Positions 24,108-31,469 of a stretch of DNA of 38,412 nt are shown piece by piece. The notes under the pieces are model-generated. The model made no database searches. It had not been told where the DNA came from and was given only the letters and a program-made list of their open reading frames with translations. Every line of letters begins with the position of its first letter. The stretch's first letter is position 1. This DNA is from Dehalococcoidia bacterium. GTDB taxonomy: Bacteria; Chloroflexota; Dehalococcoidia; Lucifugimonadales; UBA3495. The stretch is from assembly GCA_027249445.1 (NCBI GenBank), contig JAPNTN010000049.1:1-38412 (forward strand). Direction: 5' to 3'. The translations under genes were made by a program, and so were the position numbers.

Positions 24108-25283
24108 GTGGACTTTCAGTTTAGTCCAGAAGACGATCTATTCCGTCAAGAACTTCGAAGCTTTGTAAAGTCCCAACTACCGGACAACTGGGAAGGTGGG
24201 GGACGATGGCCAGAAGAATGGGACTGGGATTTCACCATGTCCCTTAGGGGAAAACTAGCTGAGAAAGGCTGGTTAACCATGCATTGGCCAAAAGAATACG
24301 GCGGTCAGGACGCATCTCCAATCAAATCTGCTATTTATAATGAAGAACTAGCTTACATGCGAGCTCCAGGCAGAGATATATTCGGGGTACGCATGCTAGG
24401 GCCAACATTGATGATCCATGGCACAGAAGAACAGAAGAAGGTTCATTTACCGCCTATATCGCGAGGTGAAATTCAGTGGTGTCAAGGATACAGTGAGCCC
24501 GAATCTGGCTCAGATTTAGCATCATTAGCTACAAGGGCTGTACTTGATGACGACGAATATGTATTAAATGGAACTAAGATATGGACTACGTTAGGACATA
24601 GGGCTGATTGGATATTTTGCCTGGCAAGAACCGACCCAGACGCACCTAAACACAGAGGCATAAGTTTCTTGTTGATTGACATGAAGAGTCCTGGTATAGA
24701 AGTCCGTCCAATAGTAAATATGGCAGGGGGACACGAGTTCAATCAAGTTATATTCGACAACGTTAGAGTTCCAAGAAGTAATATAGTTGGAGAAGAGAAT
24801 AAAGGTTGGTACGTCGCAGTCACTTTGTTAGATTTCGAGAGATCCGGAATAGATTATTCCGCTATGGCACATAGATTACTAGATGAAATACGAGATTATA
24901 CCAGTGAAACAAAGATAAATGGCGAAGTAATGTTAGACATACCATGGGTTCAGGACTTGCTAGCTGATAGGTATGTGGAATGCGAAGCTGCTAGATTAAT
25001 GGCCTACAACGTGGCATACCTGCAGGGAGAAGACCTAGTACCAAACAAGGAAGCCTCAATAAGTAAAGTCTTTGGCAGTGAAACTCTACAAAGAGTAACT
25101 GAATCCGCTTTAAAAATACTTGGCCCATATGGATCAATCGGTCGAAATGATAAATGGGCACCATTACGTGGAAGGATACAAGAACACTGGATGATAAGCT
25201 TTTCTCACAAACTTGCCGGTGGAACATCCGAGGTCCAACGTAACATAATTGCGGGACGTGGACTTGATCTACCTAGAGGTTAG
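24108..25283 (+). CDS. acyl-CoA dehydrogenase
   Basis: 391 aa, GTG start with AAGAGG upstream. WPKEYGGQ, QGYSEPESGSDLASL, LNGTKIWTT and GGTSEVQRNIIA motifs. Confidence 0.9.
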   Translation: MDFQFSPEDDLFRQELRSFVKSQLPDNWEGGGRWPEEWDWDFTMSLRGKLAEKGWLTMHWPKEYGGQDASPIKSAIYNEELAYMRAPGRDIFGVRMLGPTLMIHGTEEQKKVHLPPISRGEIQWCQGYSEPESGSDLASLATRAVLDDDEYVLNGTKIWTTLGHRADWIFCLARTDPDAPKHRGISFLLIDMKSPGIEVRPIVNMAGGHEFNQVIFDNVRVPRSNIVGEENKGWYVAVTLLDFERSGIDYSAMAHRLLDEIRDYTSETKINGEVMLDIPWVQDLLADRYVECEAARLMAYNVAYLQGEDLVPNKEASISKVFGSETLQRVTESALKILGPYGSIGRNDKWAPLRGRIQEHWMISFSHKLAGGTSEVQRNIIAGRGLDLPRG

Positions 25284-25609
25284 GCAGCAAACAACTGTAT
25301 TTCATCTTGAGAAATATTTACTTCAACATCCTCACGACACCTACGCATAATACGAAATATAGTCCTTACAGTCACTGAGAATTTATCTGCTGTTTGCTCA
25401 ACAGTAAGATTTTCATTTTTCATTGCGGATAATATTTTTAGATCCTTCGCTATTCTGCGGTTCTTCTGATACCAGGTAGGATCATCATATTTACACTGTG
25501 GAAGCGGGCATTTTAAACACGATGACGAAACCTCGCAACCCGTATCTTCATAATGATAAAACTCTGGGATTGAATCCAATTCAGGCTTAGATATAATCAT
25601 ACTAACCAT
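25280..25609 (-). CDS. small Cys4 + helix-turn-helix protein (putative transcriptional regulator)
   Basis: 109 aa. N-terminal C-x5-C-x2-C-x4-C (CEVSSSCLKCPLPQC). C-terminal HTH-like LTVEQTADKFSVTVRTIFRIMRR. AGGTG SD. Its stop overlaps the convergent ACAD stop by 4 nt. Confidence 0.6.
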   Translation of the reverse strand: MVSMIISKPELDSIPEFYHYEDTGCEVSSSCLKCPLPQCKYDDPTWYQKNRRIAKDLKILSAMKNENLTVEQTADKFSVTVRTIFRIMRRCREDVEVNISQDEIQLFAA

Positions 25610-25610
25610 T

Positions 25611-25715
25611 TAGAACACCTCGAATATTTGTTCTATAGAACGTATGATCTTATTTTAGAACGCGCGTTCTATTACTGTCAATAGTTTTTGAGGCCAAATT
25701 AGCACTAGTGTTCTA
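25611..25715. promoter_or_regulatory. operator cluster: six TAGAAC/GTTCTA hexamers including two perfect palindromes
   Basis: TAGAAC at 25611, 25636 and 25656. GTTCTA at 25630, 25666 and 25710. They form GTTCTATAGAAC (25630-25641) and TAGAACGCGCGTTCTA (25656-25671) in the divergent intergenic region. Confidence 0.6.
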
Positions 25716-25740
25716 ATAAATTATGCCTAAGGAGATAATC

Positions 25741-26520
25741 GTGACTGAATACGAAACACTTACATATGATAGAAAAGGGAAAATTGGATACATAATGATA
25801 AACCGACCTGATGCATTGAATTCTGTGACAGACCAGTTTGAAGATGATATGGAAGAAGCGTTGTTAGAATTTGATATAGATGAGGACGCTTGGGTTTGTA
25901 TCCTCTACGGGACCGGAAGATGCTTTTGCGCCGGCGCTGATATAAAACAACGATTCGTCAATATGACTCCTCAATCCCGAGCCAGACGGGCTCGGGGAAA
26001 CAGTCCAGACCATCGTCTTGGACGTTCTATAAACTGGAAACCTGTGATTGCAGCTGTTCACGGGTATGCATTGGGAGCTGGCATGTCTATGGCAGCAGAA
26101 TGTGACTTAATAGTAGCTTCTGAAGAGACTCTATTTGGAATCACAGAGACTAAAAGAGGAGTACCTGGAGGTGGAGTCTGGGCAAAAGTTTCAGCATTCA
26201 TGCCATCAAAAATCGCCACAGAGATGCTTATAACTGGTGAACCTATCAGTGCTGGTGAACTGTATAGATTAGGACTCATTAACCGCCTAGTCCCAACAGG
26301 AAAACACTTAGAAGCAGCTGAAGAATTAGCCGAAAAACTCCTAAAAACTCCTCCATTAGCTTCTAGAGCCGGCGTGCGAATAACTAGAAGATCATGGCTA
26401 CATTCTGTCGCAGATGCGCAAATGTACAATCAACCACTAAAACTGCATCTATCAGAAGATTTTCAGGAAGCTAGCAAATCATTTGTAGAAAAAAGGCCAC
26501 CTGAATACCACGCCCGATAA
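25741..26520 (+). CDS. enoyl-CoA hydratase/isomerase (crotonase) family protein
   Basis: GTG at 25741 with AAGGAG (25729-25734) 6 nt upstream. The ORF-track ATG at 25723 contains that SD. INRPDALNS, CAGADI and GYALGAGMSMA motifs. Confidence 0.88.
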   Translation: MTEYETLTYDRKGKIGYIMINRPDALNSVTDQFEDDMEEALLEFDIDEDAWVCILYGTGRCFCAGADIKQRFVNMTPQSRARRARGNSPDHRLGRSINWKPVIAAVHGYALGAGMSMAAECDLIVASEETLFGITETKRGVPGGGVWAKVSAFMPSKIATEMLITGEPISAGELYRLGLINRLVPTGKHLEAAEELAEKLLKTPPLASRAGVRITRRSWLHSVADAQMYNQPLKLHLSEDFQEASKSFVEKRPPEYHAR

Positions 26521-29918: not shown

Positions 29919-29932
29919 TAGAATATATTCTA
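29919..29932. promoter_or_regulatory. perfect 14-bp palindrome TAGAATATATTCTA upstream of the B12-XRE regulator gene
   Basis: Lies in the 339-bp divergent AT-rich intergenic region. Same half-site family and N2 spacing as TAGAACAAGTTCTA at 31456-31469. It also reads as a -10-like TAGAAT on both strands. Confidence 0.45.
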
Positions 29933-30093: not shown

Positions 30094-30972
30094 ATGAGTA
30101 CAGACGATTTAGTAACAACTAAACTGAGTGATCGTTACCTAGACGCTCTAATCCGGAGAGATCCCGACACCACGATATCTGTTATAGAAGATGCTATACG
30201 CCAAGGGCTGAGCCCAGTCAGTATACTGGTTTCAATCGTTGGCAAATCCCAGATTCGAGTCGGTGAAATGTGGCACACCGGTGAGATAAACATAGCGCAG
30301 GAGCATCTTGCAACCCAGATGACACTAGACGTTATGGACCAAATGAGACAGCGCTACCACGCTACCACGAAATGGGGAATCAAGGCAGTTGTAACATGCG
30401 TAGAAGGTAATTTCCATTACGTGGGATCCCGAATGATCGCAGACCTTTTACTAGTAGACGGATGGGACGTTGAATTCCTAGGAGCAGACACACCAACTCA
30501 CGATTTAGTTGAGTTCGTACGCCAGGGCCACCCCGAACTTGTCGCCTTATCCGTTTCTATGAAAGAAGACCTTAGTACAGCAGAGCAAATAATCACGCAA
30601 TTGAGAAGACTGCCCGATTCACCCAGAATATTACTAGGAGGATACGGCGTTACCGATACCGATCAAGTTGAGGGACTTGGACCGGACGGATTTGCCATCG
30701 ACGCATACAGTGCAATCCAGGAGGCTCGCCGCCTTGGAGGACTCTCAAAGGATCCTTTAAGTCTAAATGAATACTTAATAGTGATGGGCTCCAGAGTACA
30801 GGATTTGAGAAAAGGAAGAAGTTGGAATCAAGAACAATTAGCCCAAGCCTCTTCATTGGACAGAACCTACATAAGTGCCGTCGAGAACGGGAAACAGAAC
30901 CTGACGATCGGGGTAGTCTTAAAACTTGCCGAGGCCTTAGAAGTACCCATCGGACAGCTCCTTTCAGACTAA
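30094..30972 (+). CDS. CarH-like cobalamin-binding photoreceptor module fused to a C-terminal XRE-family HTH (putative light-responsive transcriptional regulator)
   Basis: 292 aa with GGAGGG SD. W60-x9-E70-H71 (WHTGEINIAQEH, nt 30271-30306). B12 Rossmann domain with EGNFHYVG (His108, nt 30415-30417), VALSVSM and ILLGG. C-terminal Cro/C1 HTH QEQLAQASSLDRTYISAVENGKQNLT (about nt 30763-30966). Confidence 0.8.
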   Translation: MSTDDLVTTKLSDRYLDALIRRDPDTTISVIEDAIRQGLSPVSILVSIVGKSQIRVGEMWHTGEINIAQEHLATQMTLDVMDQMRQRYHATTKWGIKAVVTCVEGNFHYVGSRMIADLLLVDGWDVEFLGADTPTHDLVEFVRQGHPELVALSVSMKEDLSTAEQIITQLRRLPDSPRILLGGYGVTDTDQVEGLGPDGFAIDAYSAIQEARRLGGLSKDPLSLNEYLIVMGSRVQDLRKGRSWNQEQLAQASSLDRTYISAVENGKQNLTIGVVLKLAEALEVPIGQLLSD

Positions 30973-31423: not shown

Positions 31424-31469
31424 TAGAACACTGTCAACATTTAAGTTAATTAATGTAGAACAAGTTCTA
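31424..31469. promoter_or_regulatory. operator-like sites: TAGAAC (31424-31429) and palindrome TAGAACAAGTTCTA (31456-31469)
   Basis: Located just downstream of the putative -10. Same half-site as the 25.6-kb cluster. TAGAAC is followed by ACTGTCAA (31430-31437), an octamer also present at 25674-25681 next to GTTCTA. Confidence 0.5.

Follow-up and report, generated by a model that had tools for sequence, protein, structure and literature searches.

The LexA repressor of Dehalococcoides ethenogenes is said to bind GAAC-N4-GTTC, in work attributed to Fernandez de Henestrosa et al. in J Bacteriol in 2002. In Bacillus subtilis and in clostridia the LexA box is documented as GAAC-N4-GTTC or GAAC-N4-GTTT (PMC4234289, PMC3323433), in agreement with the original prediction made for the DNA studied here, which had named GAAC-N4-GTTC as the LexA-box core of Bacillus-type bacteria. 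Two mobile-element systems are also close to what we describe. The late promoter P3 of the Bacillus thuringiensis phage GIL01 carries tandem LexA boxes, and GIL01 requires the phage co-repressor gp7 together with the LexA-like activator gp6 (PMC6182141). The sigma factor SigN (ZpdN) of the B. subtilis plasmid pBS32 is repressed by LexA (PMC6751061).

The locus considered here lies in the window (the whole 38,412-nt stretch of DNA analysed, contig C49 of a 1.82-Mb MAG with 212 contigs, 43.6% G+C, and a completeness of 74%). We consider it likely, on the basis of sequence comparison, that a cluster of TAGAAC and GTTCTA hexamers in this window is the control region of the gene for a small Cys4-HTH protein, and that it consists of a near-consensus sigma-70 promoter under Cheo-type LexA operators (GAAC-N4-GTTY), with LexA as the protein that we infer to bind the boxes. 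The original prediction had placed three readings side by side: an SOS box on the Cys4-HTH gene, an operator through which the HTH protein regulates itself, and a target of a B12-XRE regulator. It is the SOS-box reading that our analysis favours, and the other two are not upheld.

The proposed operators share with the Gram-positive Cheo-type LexA (DinR) operators the core, a right half that may also read GTTT, the placement over the core promoter or start site, and the autoregulation of lexA. They differ in the flank, which is (T/C)AGAAC here and CGAAC in the Gram-positive operators, in the GC-rich spacer of box 1 and its fusion to the -10 hexamer as GTTC joined to TATAAT, and in a regulon that appears to include neither uvrA (as judged in 30 relatives) nor recA (as judged in the source genome). 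As at P3 of GIL01, several predicted LexA boxes are stacked on one promoter, and tight repression is therefore implied. Unlike in GIL01, the promoter is near consensus and should fire without an activator, and the phage capsid, portal, and terminase families that were sought in the source genome were not found there. The likeness to SigN/ZpdN lies in a DNA-binding or transcription protein proposed to be directly under LexA, which would give a two-step damage response, and the HTH of the Cys4-HTH protein is weakly like sigma-70 region 4; however, SigN is a full plasmid sigma factor, whereas the protein here is a 109-aa chromosomal Cys4 protein whose gene keeps its place between metabolic genes. 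Operators of this kind are known, and the interest lies in the gene predicted to be under control and in how small the regulon seems to be.

The hexamer cluster and the predicted promoter beneath it

Read in plus-strand letters, TAGAAC starts at 25611, 25636, and 25656, and GTTCTA starts at 25630, 25666, and 25710. Re-reading of the sequence returned exactly the six hexamers of the original prediction and both of its palindromes, of 12 bp (GTTCTATAGAAC, 25630-25641) and 16 bp (TAGAACGCGCGTTCTA, 25656-25671), and the same distance of 28 bp from centre to centre. The location assigned to the cluster was likewise correct, with the minus-strand gene for the 109-aa protein (ATG 25609) on one side and the plus-strand enoyl-CoA hydratase gene on the other. 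Such a cluster is far above chance expectation. The two hexamers together occur 1139 times in the genome (0.63 per kb), for which the Poisson chance of at least six per 105 bp is about 1e-10, and 25611-25715 is the sole place genome-wide with more than three per 105 bp; a single other stretch, at 31424 and likewise inside the window, reaches three. Genome-wide counts of the three spacing classes, proposed as a check in the original prediction, gave a single copy each: GTTCTA-N0-TAGAAC and the N4 pair are found in this cluster and TAGAAC-N2-GTTCTA at 31456. The shorter form AGAAC-N4-GTTCT also has one copy in the genome, which is the one in the cluster.

A promoter scan of the minus strand identifies TTGACA-18-TAAAAT, with 11 of 12 consensus matches and an 18-nt spacer, and transcription is predicted to start at about 25645 on that strand (Table 1). 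In minus-strand order, an A-tract is followed by TTGACA (25681-25676), gtaa, and TAGAACGCGCGTTC joined directly to TAAAAT, such that box 1 (25671-25656) is fused to the -10 hexamer (25657-25652). It is followed by aAGATCATACGTTCTA as box 1b (25651-25636), TAGAACAAATATTCGA as box 2 (25635-25620), GAGGTG (25621-25616), ttctaa, and the ATG (25609). Box 1 occupies the spacer between -35 and -10 and extends two bases into the -10. From this assignment of the sequence, it follows that five of the six hexamers are halves of N4-spaced boxes.

Table 1. Features of the Cys4-HTH promoter region and of the divergent hydratase gene (window coordinates)
Feature	Position	Strand	Description
Cys4-HTH gene	25280-25609	minus	109-aa protein; C25-x5-C31-x2-C34-x4-C39; C-terminal three-helix HTH
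Sixth hexamer	25611-25616	minus	GTTCTA on the minus strand; between ribosome-binding site and ATG 25609
Ribosome-binding site of Cys4-HTH gene	25616-25621	minus	GAGGTG
Box 2	25620-25635	minus	TAGAACAAATATTCGA; GAAC-N4-ATTC, one core mismatch; in the 5' leader, abuts ribosome-binding site
Box 1b	25636-25651	minus	AAGATCATACGTTCTA; GATC-N4-GTTC, one core mismatch; covers predicted start site
-10 hexamer	25652-25657	minus	TAAAAT; promoter scan and orthologous promoters
Box 1	25656-25671		TAGAACGCGCGTTCTA; core GAAC-GCGC-GTTC, perfect 16-bp palindrome; proposed main LexA operator
-35 hexamer	25676-25681	minus	TTGACA; A-rich tract just before; promoter scan; TTGAC invariant in orthologous promoters
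Box 3	25700-25715	minus	TAGAACACTAGTGCTA; GAAC-N4-GTGC, one core mismatch; 44 bp upstream of box 1
Weak predicted hydratase promoter	25688-25693, 25712-25717	plus	TTGAGG, 18 nt, TCTAAT; by eye only
Ribosome-binding site of hydratase gene	25729-25734	plus	AAGGAG
Enoyl-CoA hydratase gene	25741-26520	plus	Pfam ECH_1, 3.6e-43; GTG start

Taken as inverted repeats of the form GAAC-N4-GTTC, with GTTY tolerated, box 1 is perfect and boxes 1b, 2, and 3 each depart from the core at one position. A scoring matrix built from lexA boxes alone, taken from other genera, gives 8.6 for box 1, 13.1 for box 1b, 10.7 for box 3, and 10.1 for box 2, with the score of box 1 reaching only 8.6 because its spacer is GC-rich; 328 genome positions score at least as high as box 1 and 32 at least as high as box 1b. 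Box 1b is specific to the genus (L006-L008 only) and can be regarded as a weak candidate operator. Box 2 is the degenerate local version of a conserved second operator, TTAGAAC-A-N3-GTTT: its position and left half match box 2 of 20 relatives, and its ATTC right half is also present in L009 and L012. In the original prediction, the position of the 25630 half-site was right, and what was missed is that this half-site belongs to the degenerate N4 box GAACAAATATTC, which corresponds to the conserved second operator. The 12-bp N0 palindrome proposed there as a unit is instead the junction of the abutting boxes 1b and 2. We rejected GTTCTATAGAAC as an operator because it is unconserved even inside the genus, being broken (TAGAGC) already at locus L007 of a same-genus genome. 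At the place of box 3, TTAGAACAYT is also found in L009, L012, and L025, and GAAC-N4-GTGC, the box 3 type, is the type of lexA box in genomes G026, G033, and G038. Conservation of the sixth hexamer is limited to L006-L008 and L012.

Conservation of the boxes and predicted binding by LexA

When aligned on box 1, the promoters of 23 relatives read aaaa-TTGAC-N7-GAAC-N4-GTTC joined to TATAAT (TATAaT), and a TTAGAAC-A-N3-GTTT-(t/c)GGAG box, near the ribosome-binding site, comes 12-24 nt after that motif; of 30 promoters examined in relatives, 23 have boxes 1 and 2. Across the orthologous promoters TTGAC, GAAC, GTTC, and the -10 are invariant, while the intervening N4 and N7 vary freely, which is the pattern of a protein-binding footprint. 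We extended the comparison to a scan of 185,579 species genomes, 263 of which have a relative of the Cys4-HTH protein, yielding 79 loci with upstream DNA. Strict box 1 is present at 60 of these 79 loci and box 1 with box 2, 30-36 nt apart, at 56, and at least one box lies within 200 nt at 76, compared with about 0.015 expected from our own base-frequency estimate. A lack of conservation in related genomes, which the original prediction had named as grounds for giving up the site, is not what these loci present. Genome G006 (L023) is the sole member of the family without boxes before the Cys4-HTH gene; its upstream region contains another inverted repeat, ATACCTAT-N14-ATAGGTAT, and it is also among the few carriers of a B12-XRE homologue.

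The source genome encodes one complete LexA of 216 aa (C180:11645-12292; PF01726, 4e-15; PF00717, 7e-27; AAG, GTSM, and LKK motifs), in which the DNA-binding domain and the S24 peptidase are combined in a single protein, and one RecA (1e-123). Its own lexA has TAGAACATATGTTTGG 22 nt before the start, just ahead of the ribosome-binding site. The upstream DNA could be read at 28 lexA loci of relatives, and 20 of these have (C/T)AGAAC-A-N3-GTTY a few bases after a TTGACA / TG-n-TAGCCT promoter. Genomes of the order that are without the Cys4-HTH gene keep GAAC-N4-GTNC (GCAC in G040) before lexA in nine of ten cases (G025-G027, G029, G031, G033, G035, G038, and G040), the exception being G036, and G006 has kept the box before lexA and lost it before the Cys4-HTH gene. 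The search for lexA and recA that the original prediction had suggested thus located both genes, with the GAAC-N4-GTTY motif on lexA and no box upstream of recA. Its reading of the cluster as an SOS box on the Cys4-HTH gene is strengthened by the motif before lexA, by the repressor positions of the boxes on a strong promoter, and by their conservation throughout the family.

It can be proposed that a LexA dimer on box 1, between -35 and -10, would keep RNA polymerase away from the promoter, with box 2, in the leader beside the ribosome-binding site, acting as a second, weaker LexA site and boxes 1b and 3 as possible degenerate extra sites that are genus-specific or confined to a few genera. 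Once DNA is damaged, RecA would stimulate LexA to cleave itself, which would open the promoter to transcription and allow the small Cys4 DNA-binding protein to be made. Since most related marine SAR202 bacteria have the boxes in this layout, it is probable that DNA damage induces the Cys4-HTH protein.

Other candidate regulators and the divergent hydratase gene

The same half-sites could in principle serve other proteins of this window. The TAGAAC half-site is common to the cluster and TAGAACAAGTTCTA at 31456, and nearly so for TAGAATATATTCTA at 29919, and the extra TAGAAC flanks and hexamers are limited to the genus that owns the gene for the B12-XRE light-sensing repressor (30094-30972), for which the cluster might be a further target. 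Full-length B12-XRE homologues, however, occur in only 5 of the 41 genomes searched (G000-G002, G006, and G027) while the boxes are near-universal, with boxes 1 and 2 in 23 of 30 relatives' promoters, and G006 has a homologue yet no boxes. The sites at 29.9 and 31.4 kb are moreover 14-bp palindromes with N2 and not N4 spacing, score about -24 (29919) and -25 (31456) with the lexA-box matrix, and have no N2 counterpart within 25611-25715. Because most genomes with the boxes lack the repressor and the spacing differs, this reading fails, and we hold it to be very improbable. The two N2 palindromes themselves, TAGAACAAGTTCTA (31456-31469) and TAGAATATATTCTA (29919-29932), contain nearly the LexA half-site at a spacing of 2 nt; two regulators may therefore be told apart by spacing alone, N4 for LexA and N2 for B12-XRE, or there may be cross-talk between light and UV. 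Autoregulation by the Cys4-HTH protein, which would then bind the lexA promoter too, draws on the confident C-terminal HTH of this protein, on the frequency of autoregulation among small regulators, and on the joint presence of boxes and gene at 76 of 79 loci. It is nevertheless improbable, and disfavoured as the main reading since it is not needed: the lexA motif persists in 9 of 10 genomes without the protein, G006 has the protein and its lexA box but not the boxes of the Cys4-HTH gene, LexA-DBD-only paralogues bear the same palindrome on their own promoters, and the motif is the known LexA box of Gram-positive bacteria. For the lexA boxes this explanation fails because they occur in genomes without the protein, and autoregulation might add a further layer of control at the Cys4-HTH gene.

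Regulation by LexA could also extend in both directions, with box 3 controlling the divergent hydratase gene, which would be an addition to LexA control of the Cys4-HTH gene and not a replacement for it. The alignment of its orthologues, which runs from residue 1, places the hydratase start at GTG 25741, not at ATG 25723. Just 131 bp separate the two genes, and box 3 overlaps the weak predicted hydratase promoter (TTGAGG-18-TCTAAT) at a distance of 26 nt from the hydratase start. The gene order, with acyl-CoA dehydrogenase and enoyl-CoA hydratase genes reading forward and the Cys4-HTH gene reversed between them (24108-26520 in the window), is found in at least 17 genera, among which the flanking enzymes share 70-79% protein identity, and the small regulator may be linked to these neighbours. 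Control of the hydratase is still unlikely in our judgement, as its plus-strand promoter failed the criteria of the promoter scan, box 3 has a core mismatch and a right half that is unconserved where the hydratase is divergent (L014, L016, L019, and L025), and we know of no link between a beta-oxidation-type enzyme and DNA damage.

The Cys4-HTH protein and the extent of the regulon

All 24 genomes of the family encode the Cys4-HTH protein, as do members of some other families in the order. Thirty homologues have 34 invariant residues in common, including the four clustered cysteines and a fifth, C91, and are annotated in their sources as 'hypothetical' or 'transposase family protein'. Pfam matches are weak (Sigma70_r4, 0.0023; Mor, 0.0039), as is a PHROG match to 'late transcriptional activator' (0.0098), and a profile search of the PDB gave Mor (1rr7) only, at E = 0.045. 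The protein resembles the phage Mu Mor/C activators (PF08765, 1rr7) in being small with a C-terminal HTH; however, all matches are under curated cut-offs, the PF08765 score of 17.6 bits falling short of the gathering cut-off of 24.9 for membership, and Mor is without a Cys4 cluster. We considered and rejected a WhiB-like (Wbl) identity, the spacing being C-x5-C-x2-C-x4-C as opposed to C-Xn-C-X2-C-X5-C, with no Whib match at E <= 0.01. The AlphaFold model has a mean pLDDT of 61 and a three-helix HTH at about 80, the cysteine region being absent from the model, and a fold search with it returned generic HTH domains only (E >= 0.3). A profile search of a public library gave 2446 clusters at 50% identity (E <= 0.001), the best 150 of which range from 55 to 179 aa and are all small stand-alone proteins, and no relatives were found in the phage collections searched. 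A second, diverged copy of the Cys4-HTH gene without boxes occurs at L127 (G011 C1:2055560-2055814), in a region that has genes for a RuvC-like protein and a DnaQ-like exonuclease and is possibly a prophage.

No LexA-type box was found upstream of uvrA in 30 relatives (L066-L095), or upstream of recA in the source genome, which makes the regulon look unusual and small. In the source genome, strict and matrix scans identify good non-coding sites only before lexA and the Cys4-HTH gene. Other matches, inside genes or beside unrelated ones (aroQ-like, NAD-binding dehydrogenase), were treated as chance. On contig C129 (positions 1-120), TTGACA-N16-TAAGCT and, after it, TGAACGAATGTTTA lie upstream of an ORF for a 314-aa NAD-binding dehydrogenase-like protein, at a distance of 32 nt; judged by its sequence this is a possible third LexA-type site of the source genome. 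What is conserved ahead of uvrA in the 30 relatives is an extended -10, GTGCTAAAAT or a sequence close to it, at about 40-60 nt from the start.

Larger relatives (G007, G014, and G015) have AGAAC-N4-GTTCT before three further kinds of gene. One, in two genera, is a TIGR03916-like radical-SAM/HhH repair gene: at L099 (G007) and L103 (G015), around position 1501 of each, the motif lies 28 nt before the gene for a 454-aa radical-SAM and helix-hairpin-helix protein, which matches TIGR03916 at 1.5e-90, under the curated cut-off. Another, in three genera, comprises a small zinc-ribbon ORF and, after it, a RuvC-like gene (L098, G007; L104, G015; L096, G014; around position 1501 of each). The promoter of this operon in G007 and G015 is of the TTGACA type, and AGAAC-N4-GTTCT adjoins its -10 directly, the junction being GTTC joined to TATAAT in G007 and to TACACA in G015; the zinc-ribbon protein (YRLKACxKCGGDL...DWICLQCG) gave no family match. 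The third is an 81-103-aa LexA-DBD-only paralogue in two near-identical copies in G015 (L105, C1:2671026; L106, C2:52949), each with its own palindromic box on the promoter and an AAA-ATPase-like gene alongside. This duplicated locus is probably a mobile element, and the paralogue recalls gp6 of phage GIL01. The radical-SAM repair, zinc-ribbon, and RuvC-like genes were not found in the source genome, which is 74% complete.

It can be tentatively hypothesized, though we think it somewhat doubtful, that the LexA regulon of this streamlined marine SAR202 lineage has shrunk to lexA and the Cys4-HTH gene, with the Cys4-HTH protein as the real SOS output. If so, recA (in the source genome) and uvrA (in the relatives) would stand outside LexA control, and the Cys4-HTH protein would act either as a second-tier transcription factor that depends on metal or redox state, or as a brake on growth that binds DNA. 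Its targets would then be without a LexA box and could include its two syntenic neighbours, which encode acyl-CoA dehydrogenase and enoyl-CoA hydratase.

The case also illustrates that look-alike half-sites within one window can serve two regulators that differ only in spacing, as with N4 for LexA and N2 for B12-XRE. SAR202 are among the most abundant bacteria of the dark ocean. All are hard to cultivate, and what is known of their stress circuits therefore comes solely from sequence. The Cys4-HTH promoter and lexA are the two best predicted LexA targets of the source genome, and the target belongs to an unnamed protein family that extends to 263 species genomes and 2446 clusters at 50% identity (E <= 0.001). 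The promoter therefore gives a concrete, experimentally testable candidate for an SOS output in SAR202.
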